Below, piece after piece: positions 4,097 through 28,340 of a stretch of 64,000 nucleotides of DNA (within the stretch, counting starts at the first letter, position 1; every line of letters begins with the position of its first letter). Made by a program: the position numbers and the translations under genes. Source of the DNA: Escherichia phage ECP2301. The notes beneath the pieces are model-generated. The model saw only the letters and a list, made by a program, of their open reading frames with translations, was not told the origin of the DNA and did no database searches. The stretch is taken from the sequence record OR880646.1; one strand, written 5' to 3'.

Positions 4097-4379
4097 TCAT
4101 ATCCTCAATCTGCGATCTAGTAGTCTTCCAAAGAATACTAATGAGTTCATCGTTATATGGCTGTTTTAGAATATCCCGACTTTTCTTGATAGCATATTCG
4201 TATTGAGCAAAATTATTGTTTTCAGCTGCAATCTGAGCGTGCTTATAAAGACGGTTCAGTTCGCGTTTGTTTTTAGACAATAACTTATTTGCTTTTCTTT
4301 CTGCTTCAAGACGGTTCTTTTCTTCAATAGAAGAAATAAGCTTTTCCACTTCATCATTAATTTCGGGTTTATCAGTCAT
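4062..4379 (-). CDS. hypothetical protein (coiled-coil rich)
   Basis: 105-aa ORF, charged helical sequence, tightly packed with neighbours. Confidence 0.5.
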   Translation of the reverse strand: MTDKPEINDEVEKLISSIEEKNRLEAERKANKLLSKNKRELNRLYKHAQIAAENNNFAQYEYAIKKSRDILKQPYNDELISILWKTTRSQIEDMIDAYTRKIQAS

Positions 4380-4380
4380 A

Positions 4381-4599
4381 TTATTTCTCTAATATAAAAT
4401 AAAAATCATCATCTGTTAAATGATACCGATAGTTTAATTCTACACCATTAGATTTAAAAGCGGTATCATACGGATTTTCTGGATCAATATCAATGTCAAG
4501 AGCTAAAACTTCCCTGAGATACATTTTAAGTAAATAGGGAATAGCTTCAACTTCAGGTATTTCTTCCAAGAATCCGGAGAGGTTAATCGTTAGCCTCAT
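4381..4599 (-). CDS. small hypothetical protein
   Basis: 72-aa ORF, start overlaps end of gene 55. Confidence 0.5.
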
Positions 4600-5140
4600 A
4601 TAAAAAATCCAAACTAGGAGAATCGTCTACAACACTTTTCTTTTCAGCCCCCGGTGTTCTATAGGTTGATTCTTCGTAATGCGTCATTTTATCGTAGATG
4701 TCTTGAATAAAAGTTTCATCTACTAACGCAACCATATCGTCGTCACGACTGTCATAGACATTGTGAACGAAGTAACTGTATTTCTTTGCAACTTCCTTAC
4801 GTTCTTTTTTAATACGTTGGACGAATGCATTAAAACAAGCTTGAGTTATATATGCATGTGGGTTTTTATATTTCGTTTCATCAAAATTATGAAGCCCCTT
4901 AATAGAAGCTTCTATACCATCTGCAATCATTTCTTGTTTCCAGGATTGGGTGTATCCTGAAAAGTTGAAACGTTTAGATAAGCCTTCTGCAATAAGCATA
5001 ATGGCCAATCCGATAGTATCATTCTGACGAACTACTTTATTTGGGTCTTTATTATTTGCTAATTCTGTTTTCCAATCAATAATAGCTTGTAAAAGCTCTT
5101 TATTGTTTACGTAATTATATTTAGGCTTAGTTTCTGACAT
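4583..5140 (-). CDS. 55: late-transcription sigma factor gp55
   Basis: ORF track gives [26 protein letters not shown]; T4 gp55 begins [10 protein letters not shown] (185 aa), so start taken at second Met. Confidence 0.9.
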
Positions 5141-5218
5141 TTTCACCTCTTAGCTCAATTCATAGATCTATTATATCATAATATTTGAAGATCTATCTTA
5201 AAGCATAGAGGATATCAG

Positions 5219-5488
5219 TTATCTAAGTAAGCAGTATGCTTGGAACACTTTTTCCATCATCTTTTTAAATTCATGAATATCTATATAATGACTAGTTAAA
5301 TCAGCATGATATAAAAAGTCTAAAAACTTTTCATGTGTGCTAGCATATTCACTTTCATTTAATTCAGAAACATGGCTTTCCCAATATCCAACACCAGTCT
5401 TATTTGGGAAAAATGAAATTTTCATGTATTGATCAACATAGAAAATGCCATAATTTTCAATAGTAATAGAAATATTAATAAATTTCAT
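5219..5488 (-). CDS. hypothetical protein
   Basis: 89-aa ORF upstream of 55 in same orientation. Confidence 0.5.
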   Translation of the reverse strand: MKFINISITIENYGIFYVDQYMKISFFPNKTGVGYWESHVSELNESEYASTHEKFLDFLYHADLTSHYIDIHEFKKMMEKVFQAYCLLR

Positions 5489-5706
5489 ACATTCATCAAC
5501 TTAGCCGCTTCAAGAGCTGCATCTAGTGAATCAAACTGGTCAACGTATTCAATCAATTCGCCATAATTAGCGTATAACCACCATTGGCTAAATTCATACT
5601 CAAGGATGAATCCATTTCCTTCAATTTGAGTTAAACCAATGCCGTTTGTATTTACTTCATATCCGGCAAGACGCAAATCGTTAATAAGAGCTTCGTTCAT
5701 ATTCAT
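5485..5706 (-). CDS. hypothetical protein
   Basis: 73-aa ORF, stop/start overlap with neighbours. Confidence 0.5.
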   Translation of the reverse strand: MNMNEALINDLRLAGYEVNTNGIGLTQIEGNGFILEYEFSQWWLYANYGELIEYVDQFDSLDAALEAAKLMNV

Positions 5707-6282: not shown

Positions 6283-6498
6283 TTAAATTTTCCAATTACC
6301 ATTTTCATCAATAAATTTAATCCAGTCATTTACTGACCACTTGGTCGTATCGCCTTTTGGAGCAACATTTAAAGTATATAATCCCTGTTTAAAAAGCATG
6401 CGTTTGATATTCATATTTTCCTCAGCTATAACGATAACACTCGTTTGATTTGCGCTTAGCAACTCGTTGAGAAGTATTATAATCAAAATCATCATCAA
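6283..6498 (-). CDS. small hypothetical protein
   Basis: 71-aa ORF; N-terminus is hydrophobic low complexity, true start may be internal Met (MNIKRMLF). Confidence 0.4.
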   Translation of the reverse strand: MMMILIIILLNELLSANQTSVIVIAEENMNIKRMLFKQGLYTLNVAPKGDTTKWSVNDWIKFIDENGNWKI

Positions 6499-6760
6499 TG
6501 TAAACTGATTTTTTCAACTTTCTTACTTCACCGCGTAATTGGCGATTTAGCTCATCTTTAACTTCTGAATCAATGCCTTTCATTCTACGCCATTTATCAG
6601 AGCGAAAAATGTTTTCAACCATATCTTTATGACTTACACCATCAGGAGCTTTACGCTTTCCGAAATAGTCATAATCACGAACTTTTAAGTCTTTACGACG
6701 ATACGTTTTACCCATGGAGTTTAATTTCCTTAGCAACTGAACTAAATACGGCACGATCAC
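6422..6760 (-). CDS. hypothetical basic protein
   Basis: 112-aa ORF rich in K/R; start possibly at internal Met. Confidence 0.45.
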   Translation of the reverse strand: MIVPYLVQLLRKLNSMGKTYRRKDLKVRDYDYFGKRKAPDGVSHKDMVENIFRSDKWRRMKGIDSEVKDELNRQLRGEVRKLKKSVYIDDDFDYNTSQRVAKRKSNECYRYS

Positions 6761-6909
6761 AAATCATCTGTTTATTCCATTTAAGTACAGTATAATGAAC
6801 ATCTAGATCATCTACTGCTGTAACAATAACAATATGTCCATTAACACGATAATACTGATCCCTTTTAATCTCTTTATCAACCATATCAAATCCTCAAAGG
6901 CAATTCATA

Positions 6910-6950
6910 TGTTAATAATACCACAGTTTGAACTTCTTGTAAACAACTTT
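6910..6950 (-). promoter_or_regulatory. early sigma70-type promoter (GTTTAC -35, TGgTATTAT -10)
   Basis: Minus-strand GTTTACa at 6939-6944 (plus gtaaac), 18-nt spacer, TGGTATTAT; member of recurring promoter family. Confidence 0.6.
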
Positions 6951-7017
6951 GTGAAAATTATTTTAGGGAACGATAAGAAGGGAACGATAGCTTAGAATGG
7001 TAATATACAGAATGTGA

Positions 7018-7040
7018 GAAAGAAAGGCCCAGAGGGCCCG
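7018..7040 (-). terminator. intrinsic terminator downstream of nrdH
   Basis: Plus aggcccagagggccc; minus RNA GGCCC-loop-GGGCC followed by U-rich tract. Confidence 0.5.
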
Positions 7041-7042
7041 TC

Positions 7043-7351
7043 TTAATCTTCTATGATATCTCTATCATATCCAAGTGAAATGAGAGTTTCTTTGAAGTGT
7101 TTAATGTTCTTTTGTCTAGAATCATTGATGAAAATGACTGGATAACGAATGTTAAGAGATGTGAATCCAGCGCGTTTAGCAAGAGATACAATCAGTGGAC
7201 GATCATACTCAATCTTACCATTATTTGTAAGAACTTTATAGAAAGTAAAAGGAGCATTGAGCTCCTTTAGAAGTTTTGTAACTGATTGACATCCAGGACA
7301 ACGACCTACTTCATCTGGAATTCCATAGACTTCAATCTTGTTTTGTTTCAC
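7043..7351 (-). CDS. nrdH: glutaredoxin-like protein NrdH
   Basis: 102 aa with CPGC redox motif; position next to nrdG/nrdD as in T4. Confidence 0.85.
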   Translation of the reverse strand: MKQNKIEVYGIPDEVGRCPGCQSVTKLLKELNAPFTFYKVLTNNGKIEYDRPLIVSLAKRAGFTSLNIRYPVIFINDSRQKNIKHFKETLISLGYDRDIIED

Positions 7352-23414: not shown

Positions 23415-23627
23415 TCATTTTTGTCCTGTATTTACTTTATGCCGATGCACGGCCTTAACTTTATCAAGGTATTTTTCAAAATTTCGCAATCTAGTATAGT
23501 CTGCCGGAGATTGGTTGAGTGATACTTCTCGACGCAAAGCTGAAATGATATTTCCAACTTCCCTACGAATTTCATCTAATTGAAGAACAGTAAGATTGCG
23601 AAGTTGCTTTTCAGTTAATTGTAGCAT
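23415..23627 (-). CDS. small basic protein
   Basis: 70-aa ORF with SD, preceded by late promoter. Confidence 0.5.
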
Positions 23628-23652
23628 ATATACCCCTTTAGTTAGATAAACC

Positions 23653-23660
23653 TATTTATA
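23653..23660 (-). promoter_or_regulatory. late promoter (TATAAATA) on minus strand
   Basis: Plus tatttata = minus TATAAATA about 25 nt upstream of start at 23627. Confidence 0.5.
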
Positions 23661-23669
23661 ACTTTTGCA

Positions 23670-24251
23670 CTAACCGAGCTTTTTAGTTAATTCATTCCAA
23701 TGTTTTCTACACAAAGAAACATAAATTTCATCACCAATACAGATTTGATTACCTTCTTTAACTGGTGTTCCATCTTCCATTAATCGAGCTGTCATAATAG
23801 CTTTTTTACCACAATGACAAACTGCTTTTAGTTCAATAAGTTTATCTGCAATCGCCAAAAGTTCTTTAGAACCTTCAAATAATTTTCCAGCGAAATCAGT
23901 CCTTAGCCCATAAGCCATAACAGGAACATTATATGTATCAACAATTCGGCTTAATTGATGCACCTGTTCAGTTTTTAAAAACTGGGCTTCATCTACAAAT
24001 ACACAATGAATATCTTTTTGTGCTTCAGCCCATTTATAGAACTCAAAAATATCCATATCATCCGTAATAATATTCGCTTCCTGTTTAATTCCAATGCGAG
24101 AAACGACTTCACAGACAGAATCGCGAGTATCAATAGCAGGCTTAAGAACTAATACACCCATTCCGCGTTCTTTATAATTATGCGCAGCAGTCAAAAGAGA
24201 AGCAGATTTTCCAGCATTCATTGCTGCATAAGTAAAAATTAAACTCGCCAT
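23670..24251 (-). CDS. tk: thymidine kinase
   Basis: 193 aa; P-loop AMNAGKS, C-terminal zinc motif CHCG...C; matches T4 tk length. Confidence 0.9.
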   Translation of the reverse strand: MASLIFTYAAMNAGKSASLLTAAHNYKERGMGVLVLKPAIDTRDSVCEVVSRIGIKQEANIITDDMDIFEFYKWAEAQKDIHCVFVDEAQFLKTEQVHQLSRIVDTYNVPVMAYGLRTDFAGKLFEGSKELLAIADKLIELKAVCHCGKKAIMTARLMEDGTPVKEGNQICIGDEIYVSLCRKHWNELTKKLG

Positions 24252-24260
24252 ATCACCTTC

Positions 24261-24446
24261 TTAAAGCGTATTCACATAAGCTATTAATTCGTTTTCTTTC
24301 TTATCAAACCGATCAGCAAATTCTTCCTGTTGTTCGGGAGATAGCGGGCCGTATTCATCATAAAAGGTGTTTGCTTCTGTATGCTCATCTAGAAGTTCAT
24401 GGATAAGCTCAAACAATTTATCTTTTTGTTCTTTACTCAGACTCAT
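24261..24446 (-). CDS. small acidic protein
   Basis: 61-aa ORF. Confidence 0.4.
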   Translation of the reverse strand: MSLSKEQKDKLFELIHELLDEHTEANTFYDEYGPLSPEQQEEFADRFDKKENELIAYVNTL

Positions 24447-24612
24447 ATATTAATTTCCAGGAGTTTTAAAATAATTCGCTTTTGCTTAAATATTTCCATG
24501 GTTAAATGACCAGTATCTTTTTGACCGATTCCAATGGCAAAACCTTTATTGACAGCGAATTCAATTAAATTATCAAGCTCACGTAACACTTCATATTGTA
24601 ACTCAAAACTAT

Positions 24613-24840
24613 TCATTTTGGTTTACCTTCTTTAACGAAATCAGGATAAGGATAAAATCCTGAATAAAATCCTTCACCTTTATGATTGATGCATCCTTTA
24701 TTAGAACAATAGCACCAATAATCGAAATCACAAGCCATTTCATCATTACATAAAGCAAAAACAACCGGCCATTCACACTTTTCGCAGTGGGCATTTTTAA
24801 GAATACTAGTTTGGCTCATAACCATGTAACCTTTAAGCAA
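24613..24840 (-). CDS. small Cys-rich protein (possible zinc binding)
   Basis: 75 aa with HCEKCEW and CYCSNKGC clusters. Confidence 0.45.
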   Translation of the reverse strand: MLKGYMVMSQTSILKNAHCEKCEWPVVFALCNDEMACDFDYWCYCSNKGCINHKGEGFYSGFYPYPDFVKEGKPK

Positions 24841-25028
24841 TATTCTTCTACGTGCTGTTTACGACCTTTCTTATCTATAAAGGTATATTCAACGAATGTT
24901 CCAATATAGTCTTTATCTACATCATGCGGACTATTAATTGGACATTTAGTACGGCAAATGCGTTCCCATTGACGAATAATTTCCACTTTGTTTTTAGGAT
25001 CAAACGGATGCGGGTAATGTACTTTCAT
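24816..25028 (-). CDS. small hypothetical protein
   Basis: 70-aa ORF. Confidence 0.4.
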   Translation of the reverse strand: MKVHYPHPFDPKNKVEIIRQWERICRTKCPINSPHDVDKDYIGTFVEYTFIDKKGRKQHVEEYCLKVTWL

Positions 25029-25479
25029 AATCCACCACTATTAAATCAATATCAGGAGTAAACATGTCGATTAATTTAGAAACCTTATCCCAATCGCCGC
25101 CAGCAATACCGCAACCTATGCGTGGAATGTAAATTACTGGTTTAAACAAAAGGGTTTCTGCCTGTAGATTTAATTCTATCATGCAGTTTACTAAAGCACC
25201 ATAATCAAGATTAGGACCCGGTTCATATTGCGTATACAGGTTATAGCATATACCAAATCCTGTAGGATTATGTTTAAAAACAATAGACATATCGCCTAAT
25301 TTATCACGAGAACCGTACTCGGTAGTGGTTTTATCTATTTCCAAAATTTTAGGATAGGCTCTTGCTAATTGACCTGCTACGCCAGAGCCCATTGTGTGGA
25401 AGCAATTACACCCGTGCGCAATAATATTACCTTGAAGAAATAGGGCGACAATATCGCCCTTGATATATTTTACAATCAT
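25000..25479 (-). CDS. macro-domain-like protein (ADP-ribose binding/processing fold, tentative)
   Basis: 159 aa; Gly-rich motifs HGCNCFHTMGSGVAGQ and RIGCGIAGG reminiscent of macrodomain phosphate-binding loops. Confidence 0.45.
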   Translation of the reverse strand: MIVKYIKGDIVALFLQGNIIAHGCNCFHTMGSGVAGQLARAYPKILEIDKTTTEYGSRDKLGDMSIVFKHNPTGFGICYNLYTQYEPGPNLDYGALVNCMIELNLQAETLLFKPVIYIPRIGCGIAGGDWDKVSKLIDMFTPDIDLIVVDYESTLPASV

Positions 25480-25817
25480 CTAGTACTCAATCCTCGATTA
25501 TAAGAATCTACTAAACGGTCAACCATTGAATGACAAGCGGCTTTATCTTTCTCCTCCGCAACTGAACATTCTAAGGTATTCCACTTTTTAGCATATCGTT
25601 TTAACAATGTATCATTTTTGTATCTGCTTGATTTATCTCTTTCTCCGTCTTTATATGCATATATTAATTTCTGCGCAAATTCAGCTTGGCATGCTTTATT
25701 TTTCCCACAATAATCCGCGGCAGTACGGTTTACATACTCTCTAATTTCAGTATATGATGTATCTGCTAACGCAGAAAATGAAATTAATCCTATACATAAA
25801 ACCAAAATTTTAGTCAT
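25476..25817 (-). CDS. secreted/periplasmic small Cys-containing protein
   Basis: 113 aa; signal peptide MTKILVLCIGLISFSALA; 4 Cys. Confidence 0.55.
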   Translation of the reverse strand: MTKILVLCIGLISFSALADTSYTEIREYVNRTAADYCGKNKACQAEFAQKLIYAYKDGERDKSSRYKNDTLLKRYAKKWNTLECSVAEEKDKAACHSMVDRLVDSYNRGLSTR

Positions 25818-26355
25818 TTACTATTTCCAAAAGTTTATTATTTTTAAGGTAATTAGCCTTTTCTAGGACTTCAGAAGCATATTTAGAACCTGCTTTAACA
25901 TTCCATCCCGAATTATAAGAGGATATTGCTTTTCTTATATCGCCCTTATGTATATTTAACCAATAAGAAAGTTCAATGTACGCCCAGGAAGCTGAATTGG
26001 ACCGTTTATTCAACATTCTTTTTATTTCAGCATCGGTCATATTATAACCAAGTTCCTTAACTCTTGCTCGCATGGTCGGCAAATAATTTTGGAACATTCC
26101 ATAGGCATGATGCTTTGGTTTAGATTTTAAATTAACTCCGGCAGAGCTTTCTTGCCATAAAATAGCAGCCATTATATGGCCCAATCCGCTCTTGTGGATA
26201 TTTTTGTGTGTTTTATATTTTCCATCCTTAGAAAATTGTTCCCCGAATTGATATGCGTAACGCATGTTATCGAGTTGGACATTACTGAAAGTATGCTCGG
26301 AGCTATGTGCCATCATTGAAATGGCCAATAGACCAGCGAGTAGTGCTTTTCTCAT
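25810..26355 (-). CDS. periplasmic lytic transglycosylase-like protein (SLT domain; T4 vs.1-like)
   Basis: 181 aa; signal peptide; SLT motifs WQESSAG, YGMFQ, SYNSG. Confidence 0.7.
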   Translation of the reverse strand: MRKALLAGLLAISMMAHSSEHTFSNVQLDNMRYAYQFGEQFSKDGKYKTHKNIHKSGLGHIMAAILWQESSAGVNLKSKPKHHAYGMFQNYLPTMRARVKELGYNMTDAEIKRMLNKRSNSASWAYIELSYWLNIHKGDIRKAISSYNSGWNVKAGSKYASEVLEKANYLKNNKLLEIVND

Positions 26356-26362
26356 GCTTACC

Positions 26363-26824
26363 TCATTGAGTTTTAATTACTGCTTTAGAAGCCTTTCCTG
26401 GTAAACGACGACTGTTGATAATTGCCATCCTACATTGAAGCGACGGGTCTTTGAATTTCGCATTAGGTTTACAAACTGTAAATCCAAGCCAAAGATTTCC
26501 ATCTGTGATTTCTAAACGTCCAGGGCGATATTCAACCCCATCAATAAAATCCTCGTCAATGTCAGGACGCGGAGGCATACTCAGGAATTCATTAACTTCT
26601 AAAACATGGTCTTTTATTTTGTGGAATAATTCAAAAACATATGTCTCATCAATCTCCCGTTGAATTGCACGATCAAGAAGATGCTGAGAATATTTTAGAT
26701 GAAACGATGAGACCCCTGCTGCTTTTGATGCCTCACGAATCTCATTGTTAATTTGACGAAACTCCGACTCAAAGTGACGACGAAGCTTATTTCGACGGAT
26801 AAAAACTTCTGTGTTGATAGTCAT
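26363..26824 (-). CDS. regB: site-specific RNA endonuclease RegB
   Basis: 153 aa, MTINTEVFIRRNKLRRHF...; size and position as T4 regB. Confidence 0.85.
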   Translation of the reverse strand: MTINTEVFIRRNKLRRHFESEFRQINNEIREASKAAGVSSFHLKYSQHLLDRAIQREIDETYVFELFHKIKDHVLEVNEFLSMPPRPDIDEDFIDGVEYRPGRLEITDGNLWLGFTVCKPNAKFKDPSLQCRMAIINSRRLPGKASKAVIKTQ

Positions 26825-26849
26825 GTTATTCTCCTCTTAACTGATAGAA

Positions 26850-26885
26850 AAATTATACCACAGTCAAGAGGAAAAGTAAACAGTT
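26850..26885 (-). promoter_or_regulatory. early promoter for regB (GTTTAC -35, TGgTATAAT -10)
   Basis: Minus strand GTTTACttttcctcttgacTGTGGTATAATttttc. Confidence 0.65.
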
Positions 26886-27204
26886 ATTCTTTAAATCTAA
26901 TCAATTTATTCATAGACTTTGAAACTTCTGCACGGACCTCATGTAGGTTTTTAAGCTGTTCAAGACGTTGCTCATAGTAAGCAATTTCATCTTCTTCTAG
27001 ACAGTCCTGTGAATCTTCTTTAAGATAACGTGCATAGTCCTGGAAAGCTTTACGGACTACTTCCTGGAAGTCATCAAGACTTTGAATTTTCTTAGGAGCA
27101 ACAGATACACGACGGTCTGCTGCATAATAATGAGTACCAAAACCTGATAGCAATTGTGCCATTAATATTTTTCCTCTGGTTGGAACACAGCACGACAAGC
27201 CCAC
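26884..27204 (-). CDS. hypothetical protein
   Basis: 106-aa ORF. Confidence 0.5.
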
Positions 27205-27464
27205 ATACTGGCTTCTTTGAGTTTCGTTTTAGCAATAGTTAACTGATCGAGGCTTTCAGCATAATTCTTCGCGAATTCACAGTCTTCACAATTATCCAGT
27301 GCTTCCCAAAATTCATCGTATAAAGCGTCAAAGATAAGTCCTAAACGAACTTCAGCATCTTTGATAGCATTCACTTTACCGATTTTCTCTTCAGTATGTG
27401 GCTTATAACCTTTAATATCTTCAATCATATTTGACTTCCTCACCAGTACATAAATCATATTCAA
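27162..27464 (-). CDS. hypothetical acidic protein
   Basis: 100-aa ORF. Confidence 0.5.
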
Positions 27465-27642
27465 CTAAACGAATAGGTTCATGAATGCCATATCCTTGAA
27501 CAGAAATTTCTGTCGTAGGATAAATTCCATCAATATCACCCATGGTCCACGCTTCATTAAATTGCTGTTCGCCTGAATTACTAAACCACTCGGCGAAAGC
27601 ATTTAACACATCTTTAGAACCTTCAATAATTATCTTTGCCAT
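27421..27642 (-). CDS. small hypothetical protein
   Basis: 73-aa ORF. Confidence 0.45.
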   Translation of the reverse strand: MAKIIIEGSKDVLNAFAEWFSNSGEQQFNEAWTMGDIDGIYPTTEISVQGYGIHEPIRLVEYDLCTGEEVKYD

Positions 27643-28004
27643 TACAGACTCTCAGTAAAGGTACGAGCGATAACGTCGCGCTGCTGTTCCGGAGTCAGAG
27701 AGTTAAAGCGAACTGCATAACCGGATACACGGATGGTCAGCTGCGGATATTTTTCCGGATGCTTAACTGCATCTTCAAGAGTTTCACGACGCAGAACGTT
27801 TACGTTCAAGTGTTGACCACCTTCAATTTTAACTGTAGGCTGTGGTTCAATTTCAATTTCACGGGCATGCAAACCGTAGAAAATTTCTGGGTCTACAAAA
27901 GAGTCCTCTTTAAAGGTTTTAGAAACAATAATTCGTGCTTGAATACCATCTTCAAAATAAATAGTACCTTTATGTGTGCCTTCAAGAATTTGATATGCTT
28001 TCAT
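27642..28004 (-). CDS. autonomous glycyl-radical cofactor (GrcA/YfiD-like; T4 Y06I-like)
   Basis: 120 aa; C-terminal [59 protein letters not shown] carries glycyl-radical signature RVSGYAV and is near-identical to E. coli GrcA as recalled. Confidence 0.85.
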
Positions 28005-28010
28005 ATAACC

Positions 28011-28340
28011 TCAATTAGAAAATAAATTTATCCAAGACTGTTCTTTAATTAAAAATGGCTCAGAATCATATGCCATTAAACTTTGGGTGATTAGTCCTTT
28101 AAAAGGACCATCAATAAATTCCATGGTAAAATATGGAATTTTATTCATTAATCTTGCATTAGGAGCAGTACACAAAACTCTGCATCCTTTGAATACACCT
28201 TTTTGTAATTTGTATTGCTTATGATAAAATTCGCTCAAGACGTTGTTATTTGCCAAAATTTCAAAATGATTCACCAATTTATTTTTAATAGTTTTTGGCG
28301 AAAAATAAAGATATTCGAAAAGCTGTGTGTCTGTCATCAT
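28011..28340 (-). CDS. hypothetical protein
   Basis: ORF track 126 aa; start moved to internal Met to avoid overlap. Confidence 0.45.
   Translation of the reverse strand: MMTDTQLFEYLYFSPKTIKNKLVNHFEILANNNVLSEFYHKQYKLQKGVFKGCRVLCTAPNARLMNKIPYFTMEFIDGPFKGLITQSLMAYDSEPFLIKEQSWINLFSN

Follow-up and report, generated by a model that had tools for sequence, protein, structure and literature searches.

The open reading frame (ORF) at positions 25000-25479, on the minus strand of a 64,000-nucleotide stretch of Escherichia phage ECP2301 DNA (OR880646.1; here called the window), encodes, as judged from sequence profiles and a structural model, a macrodomain of the TARG1/DarG/Poa1p/SCO6735 ("ALC1-like") class. 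It is probably a stand-alone macrodomain ADP-ribosylglycohydrolase, an allele of T4 Tk.4/AdfM, which would counter the host toxin DarT2 by a glutamine-type chemistry. Full-length homology to T4 Tk.4 in the same genomic slot makes the same role against DarTG2 the best supported one. A macrodomain protein was what the initial annotation had proposed here, and profile, predicted structure, and fold search all bear this out.

The window belongs to a T4-like phage (Tequatrovirus), and the region around the macrodomain ORF is 99.3% identical to that of Escherichia phage teqskov and 95-99% identical to those of about 400 other T4-like phages. The annotation in teqskov reads "macro domain protein"; RefSeq records label the ORF "phosphatase", and the RefSeq note on T4 tk.4 reads "contains A1pp phosphatase motif". 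The gene is already known and not new: its macro/A1pp domain has been recognizable for years, and a function was assigned to T4 tk.4 in late 2025. The suggestion that the gene might be a discovery does not hold, as close relatives already carry the macro domain label. As a discovery it has little weight, since macro domains are widespread in myoviruses, the gene is annotated, and the role of its T4 counterpart is assigned. The useful outcome is a correct annotation, that is, an AdfM/Tk.4-type anti-DarT2 macrodomain in place of "phosphatase" or "hypothetical protein".

A separate observation concerns the teqskov record (MN895437), in which several neighbours of regB carry the label "endoribonuclease RegB..." at locus 4211-4756, 5285-5563, 6412-6741, and 6738-7277. 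The genes so labelled include vs.1 and the genes at the T4 vs.3, vs.7, and next-gene positions. The true regB homologue is the 153-residue ORF at 26363-26824 of the window, and these labels look like a mistake passed from one record to another.

According to the ORF list, the macrodomain ORF runs from ATG to TGA and specifies 159 amino acids plus the stop. Chance occurrence of such a frame is ruled out by its matches to Pfam, to PHROG 335, and to phage and metagenome proteins. Two glycine-rich motifs, HGCNCFHTMGSGVAGQ and RIGCGIAGG, had been taken for ADP-ribose-binding loops, and both are present when the ORF is translated. The first (loop 1) occupies residues 22-37 (25369-25416, minus strand), and includes H22, G23, and N25 as well as the GxG motif, which would line the ADP-ribose cleft, and the second is the putative phosphate-binding loop at residues 120-128 (25096-25122, minus strand). 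Both of them align with the known loops of macrodomains.

The gene is tightly packed among its neighbours. Upstream lies the vs homologue, whose stop codon (25478-25476) shares bases with the macrodomain start codon (25479-25477) in an ATGA at 25476-25479 of the minus strand, an arrangement typical of translational coupling inside one transcription unit. A GAGGA that resembles a Shine-Dalgarno element lies 11 nt upstream of the ATG (25491-25495, minus strand), and the same sequence is found in T4; its putative role is read from the sequence only. At the other end, the 3′ end of the ORF overlaps the start of the tk.3 homologue (24816-25028, minus strand) by 29 nt (25000-25028), as the ORF list and translation indicate. 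In T4, by contrast, tk.4 and tk.3 overlap by only 4 nt; the ORF described here has four extra C-terminal residues. Given the ATGA start overlap and the 29-nt overlap at the 3′ end, the macrodomain gene is a link in a tightly packed minus-strand run, whose order is regB, vs.1, vs, the macrodomain ORF, the tk.3 homologue, three small ORFs, and tk. The position upstream of tk that the initial annotation had named is confirmed: tk lies at 23670-24251 on the minus strand, and four small ORFs separate it from the macrodomain ORF, which precedes it in the direction of transcription.

A scan of 23500-28200 gave 14 promoter-like sites versus 17.5 expected by chance, a count that is uninformative on expression. 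A strong hairpin, AGGGCGA-TATTG-TCGCCCT, was observed at 25442-25460, 19 nt into the macrodomain coding sequence, with a terminator-like score on both strands. Since this hairpin lies inside the coding region and its DNA is identical in T4, no claim of a terminator is made.

The assignment to the ALC1-like class follows from profile and structure matches. The Pfam macro search that had been proposed as a check gives 33.1 bits with the Macro profile PF01661, above the gathering cut-off of 22, with profile positions 2-117 of 118 covered, and PHROG 335 is matched at E = 1.6e-71. The ORF product shows the three-layer alpha/beta/alpha macro fold, the absence of which was to have refuted the macrodomain proposal; it is recovered both by profile and in the predicted structure. 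The AlphaFold model built on the family alignment is confident (mean pLDDT 94.2, pTM 0.89). The GxG loop (G31-S-G33) follows the second core strand and aligns with the loops of BT1257, SCO6735, TARG1, and DarG, as does the glycine-rich phosphate loop G122-C-G124-I-A-G127-G128; the residues of both loops are invariant or nearly so among 101 homologues of the family. Among solved structures, the single sequence matches BT1257 (about 2e-10), Poa1p (1.5e-9), SCO6735 (8.5e-8), M. tuberculosis DarG (4.8e-5), and human TARG1 (0.01). With the profile of the 101 homologues, these matches become 7e-19 for BT1257, 3e-16 for TARG1, 4.2e-15 for SCO6735, 1.7e-14 for Poa1p, and 2.7e-11 for DarG.

DarG models are the top matches in PADLOC (4.5e-7) and in NCBIfam (1.4e-6), and membership in the DarG antitoxin family was considered and rejected. 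The score with NCBIfam NF048014 is 27.8 bits versus an equivalog cut-off of 250, and that with the PADLOC DarG model is 27.7 bits. Of the 338 positions of that model, only 2-142 are matched, and the C-terminal DarT-binding domain is missing. In addition, Lys80 of DarG is missing, as Gln84 aligns to K80 in both DarG structures, and a neighbouring darT is lacking. Indeed, no DarT-like gene is found beside the macrodomain ORF, either among the window ORFs or in the teqskov annotation.

The product of the ORF is 58% identical to T4 Tk.4 over 155 amino acids, with no gaps (E = 1e-70), and the slot that it fills, between the homologues of tk.3 (92.9% identical to T4) and vs (99.1%), is the T4 tk.4 slot. 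Based on the ORF list, Pfam, T4 homology, synteny, and the AlphaFold model, the gene at 25000-25479 (minus strand) is considered the positional counterpart of T4 tk.4/adfM. The toxin DarT2 attaches ADP-ribose to thymidine in single-stranded DNA, which blocks replication, and the DarG2 macrodomain reverses the modification (PMC11825919, PMC9411070). In a T4 transposon library (HIDEN-SEQ) grown on a DarTG2-expressing host, tk.4 was the only significant gene, and a clean tk.4 knockout was sensitive to DarTG2; the gene was renamed adfM, for anti-DarT factor Macrodomain, in a preprint dated November 2025 (bioRxiv 10.1101/2025.11.20.689424). What is demonstrated there for T4 Tk.4 is the phenotype alone, the removal of ADP-ribose from DNA being proposed as "likely". 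The idea that a phage macrodomain could counter host ADP-ribosylating defences is supported by these T4 data on DarTG2. From the homology, and by analogy, we infer that the 58%-identical allele would have the same activity and role as T4 Tk.4.

It had also been suggested that the protein might reverse or read the marks of the phage's own transferases Alt, ModA, and ModB, which modify arginine; ModB-type RNAylation may be added to these marks. T4-type phages do encode transferases of the Alt/ModA/ModB type, and a survey reports an enrichment in myoviruses for macro domains as well as for ADP-ribosyltransferases (PMC9503650). However, the activities reported for this class of macrodomains in the literature covered concern Glu/Asp esters, thymine and uracil bases, and ADP-ribose-1′′-phosphate, none of them arginine-linked (PMC9411070, PMC13036486), and tk.4 was not flagged as required in standard K-12 infection, but only with DarTG2 (bioRxiv 10.1101/2025.11.20.689424). 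Reversal of Alt, ModA, or ModB marks has thus found no support, and this whole explanation is very improbable. A purely non-catalytic reader is unlikely, because all the catalytic-site residues predicted from the alignments are conserved among the 101 homologues.

The legacy "phosphatase" label corresponds to another explanation, namely that the protein is an Appr1p (ADP-ribose-1′′-phosphate) phosphatase, or a processor of soluble ADP-ribose derivatives, which clears by-products of RNA repair or NAD signalling. Poa1p acts on ADP-ribose-1′′-phosphate, which is a soluble phosphate ester (PMC13036486). Against this, the label is a homology carry-over from the old A1pp domain name and from Poa1p-type proteins, and the sole phenotype that genetics has given for T4 tk.4 involves a DNA ADP-ribosylating toxin. 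Moreover, neither KptA/Tpt1 nor a 2H phosphoesterase was identified beside the gene, which is flanked by the homologues of vs and vs.1 and by small ORFs whose only matches are PHROGs of unknown function. A phosphatase of this type is regarded as distinctly improbable.

The anti-DarT2 reading can be examined at the level of the active site. The ORF product was aligned with T4 Tk.4, PhiKZ gp104, the DarGs of M. tuberculosis and T. aquaticus, TARG1, BT1257, and SCO6735, the sequences of the DarGs, TARG1, BT1257, and SCO6735 coming from PDB searches. Among the 101 homologues, H22, G23, N25, C26, G33, A35, Q84, P119, and W130 are invariant, and G122, G124, G127, and G128 nearly so. The catalytic lysine of both best-studied thymine-ADP-ribose hydrolases, K80 in DarG and K84 in TARG1, is missing, which argues against the anti-DarT2 assignment; at its position stands Gln84, within T83-Q84 at 25228-25233 of the minus strand, as placed by translation and alignments. 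TARG1 D125 corresponds to Ala126. On the other hand, Gln84 aligns to Gln85 of SCO6735, His22 to His24, Asn25 to Asn27, and G122 and G124 to G126 and G128.

SCO6735 reverses the thymidine ADP-ribosylation by DarT both in vitro and inside cells, and its Q85A variant is inactive and its N27S variant nearly so. In the mechanism proposed for it, the distal ribose is oriented by Gln, and a water molecule is held by the backbone of Val25, a role that this residue would exert via its backbone oxygen. The hallmarks of its subclass are a Gln at the catalytic-Lys position held by a conserved Asn, Val/Ile at position 25, and an extended Lys-bearing mobile loop that is five residues longer than in DarG and TARG1 (PMC9411070). 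The Gln at the Lys position and the conserved Asn are both found in the phage protein, as Q84 and N25 align to Q85 and N27. Two SCO6735-specific features are missing and count against the assignment: Val25 is replaced by Gly23, an invariant Gly in the phage family, and the Lys-bearing mobile-loop insertion of SCO6735 and BT1257 (5-6 residues) is absent, the loop having the length seen in DarG and TARG1. Full membership in the SCO6735 subclass is rejected on these two grounds, and the description that best suits the phage family, from its sequence, is Gln-type like SCO6735/ALC1 yet short-looped like DarG/TARG1. With Gln84 instead of the catalytic Lys of DarG and TARG1, the chemistry is probably of the SCO6735 type, and we infer, by analogy, hydrolysis by a Gln-type mechanism.

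The anti-DarT2 activity could then proceed as follows. Expression of the macrodomain gene would come from the minus-strand run that it shares with regB, vs.1, vs, the tk.x ORFs, and tk. During infection, DarT2 of the host would ADP-ribosylate thymidines in single-stranded phage DNA and replication would be blocked. The macrodomain protein would bind the ADP-ribose in its cleft through H22-N25 and the GSG loop, together with the G122-G128 phosphate loop. Gln84 would place the distal ribose and a backbone-held water would act, with no lysine being used, as proposed for SCO6735. Cleavage of the N-glycosidic bond between ribose and thymine would release ADP-ribose and restore the DNA, so that the protein would act, in effect, as an "orphan antitoxin".

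Protein identity to T4 was determined gene by gene, and DNA identity was followed in 50-column windows of a MAFFT alignment against T4. Besides tk.3 and vs, for which the values are given above, the neighbours rI.-1 (100%), rI (96.9%), rI.1 (100%), tk (99.0%), vs.1 (99.4%), and regB (99.3%) are all close to their T4 counterparts, in contrast to the 58% of the macrodomain gene. The DNA identity falls to 42-72% at about 24997-25383, with about 96-100% on both flanks. The first 30 or so codons of the macrodomain gene stay close to T4, and the replaced part is approximately the C-terminal three quarters. By sequence comparison, a 58% allele amid neighbours of 93-100% indicates a local mosaic replacement. 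T4-like phages typically exchange alleles in this way, by recombination within a hypervariable region. Such an exchange would suit a gene of counter-defence and is, alone, no proof of a functional difference. The allele of the window is found at 90% identity or more in 312 phage records, the T4-type allele in 224, and a form 80-90% identical to that of T4 in a further 159; with 312 versus 224 records, the window allele is the commoner form rather than an oddity. In its phosphate loop, GCGIAGGDW, it follows the consensus of the family, whereas the GAGIGKGNW of T4 Tk.4 is unusual.

Colinearity with T4 is also lost in a second block, at 24251-24846, where three small ORFs on the minus strand, of 61, 57, and 75 amino acids, stand in place of tk.1 and tk.2 (the last is annotated in teqskov with about 68 amino acids, from an ATG). 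The first of them shares 54% identity with Tk.2; for the other two, T4 has no counterpart in the region, and they match PHROG 3452 and 2306, of unknown function. The last one is Cys-rich (CEKCEW...CNDEMACDFDYWCYCSNKGC), and its sequence suggests a small zinc-binding protein. On the other side, the homologues of vs (25476-25817) and vs.1 (25810-26355) have a hydrophobic, signal-peptide-like N-terminus (MTKILVLCIGLISFSALA... and MRKALLAGLLAISMMAHS..., respectively). [quoted passage not shown] The vs.1 homologue has weak PHROG matches to lytic tail proteins, and in HIDEN-SEQ, vs has been reported to show the strongest depletion of all T4 genes in minimal medium (bioRxiv 10.1101/2025.11.20.689424).

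Homologues of the macrodomain gene are widely distributed. By tblastn, they are present in 2,777 of 50,697 phage records, the hosts including Escherichia, Klebsiella, Salmonella, Pseudomonas, Vibrio, Acinetobacter, Aeromonas, and others, and 795 proteins of a metagenome collection match at E <= 0.001. A survey places macro domains in about 41% of myoviruses (PMC9503650). Beside a bacterial homologue, a stand-alone chromosomal gene of Pelagimonas, no DarT neighbour is found, a single case that is too little to generalise from. A 43%-identical homologue was seen on a phage-like metagenomic contig of 110 kb, some 4 kb away from an Acb5-domain gene (PF26761), at 541-888 and 5001-5447, and next to genes of nucleotide metabolism. 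Judging from its name, Acb5 is presumably an anti-CBASS gene, and its proximity may hint at a clustering of counter-defence genes. In a Microbacterium phage (accession masked, xxxxxxxx), the gene under the macrodomain match is annotated as "ADP-ribosyltransferase", and in Streptomyces phage Moab a macro gene and a sirtuin are described as a toxin-antitoxin-like module (PMC9503650). The macro genes of actinophages may therefore be partners of phage-encoded transferases rather than orphan counter-defence genes.

The ALC1-like macrodomains are promiscuous: SCO6735, besides thymidine in DNA, also acts on protein ADP-ribosylation (PMC9411070) and on uracil-linked ADP-ribose on RNA (PMC13036486). 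Given this promiscuity of the class, the phage enzyme may have natural substrates besides DarT2-modified DNA, or even a main one other than it. The protein could be a broader eraser, whose main substrate would be uracil-linked ADP-ribose on RNA or Glu/Asp-linked ADP-ribose on protein set by another host defence, with DarTG2 resistance as one of several activities. The breadth of the Gln-type SCO6735 favours this idea, and the occurrence of several strongly diverged allele classes among near-identical phages could reflect different targets. Nevertheless, DarTG2 provides the sole conditional phenotype reported in T4 (bioRxiv 10.1101/2025.11.20.689424), and no bacterial defence that ADP-ribosylates RNA uracil was found in the literature covered. 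A main substrate other than DarT2-modified DNA is unlikely, and the broader range is compatible with the anti-DarT2 explanation.

A further possibility, doubtful but worth stating, is that the T4-type AdfM represents a third mechanistic subtype of thymine-ADP-ribose hydrolase, which would combine Gln chemistry with a short loop and would not be a captured DarG, and that the sharply bounded 58%-identity replacement, in a genome otherwise roughly 99% identical, reflects the swapping of alleles in an arms race. If this were true, one allele would be distinguished from another by its range of substrates (DarT2 variants, uracil-linked RNA, or protein) or by its evasion of a host sensor or inhibitor. 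The preferred reading, that of a Tk.4/AdfM allele directed against DarT2, has consequences of its own. The presence of Gln instead of the Lys of DarG and TARG1 bears on the chemistry of thymine-ADP-ribose hydrolysis and on the cross-reactivity of DarG inhibitors with phage enzymes, and the diverged alleles at the T4-like locus are a natural panel for specificity versus different DarT toxins.

Among the known systems, the DarG macrodomain of DarTG2 (PDB 5M3I, 5M31) differs from the phage protein in having Lys80 where Gln84 stands, and in its DarT-binding domain and adjacent darT, both of which are absent here. Human TARG1/OARD1 and yeast Poa1p share the ALC1-like fold class with it. TARG1 removes thymine- and uracil-linked ADP-ribose (PMC13036486), and its catalytic dyad K84/D125 becomes Q84/A126 in the phage protein.

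PhiKZ gp104, which is also named AdfM, neutralises DarT2, and its removal of ADP-ribose from DNA has been shown in vitro (Cell Rep 2026, PMC13309987). Like the ORF described here, it is a phage-encoded stand-alone macrodomain; unlike it, it is Lys-type and DarG-like, with an FPTKDNW motif, whereas the present protein is Gln-type. Identity of the two was considered and rejected, the BLASTP match having E = 0.001 over 33 residues and the alignment 22% identity with a protein of Lys type. By sequence, the AdfM name has been given independently to two separate phage macrodomain lineages, that of PhiKZ gp104 and that of T4 Tk.4.

SCO6735 and BT1257 (PDB 5E3B, 2FG1) are the best matches in sequence and structure. 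What they have in common with the phage protein is a Gln at the catalytic site position, a His-x-x-Asn motif, and a GCG(L/I)AGG phosphate loop, and SCO6735 likewise stands alone without a DarT partner. The differences are an identity of only 26% with SCO6735 and a loop after the Gln that is 5-6 residues longer in SCO6735 and BT1257. Furthermore, SCO6735 is a DNA-damage-inducible bacterial gene, whereas the present one would be a phage counter-defence gene. T4 Tk.4/AdfM differs from the ORF product in 42% of residues, though the flanking genes are 93-100% identical. It is of about the same size (155 versus 159 amino acids), and it shares with the ORF the slot, homology over the full length, and the same invariant residues, including H22, N25, and Q84.
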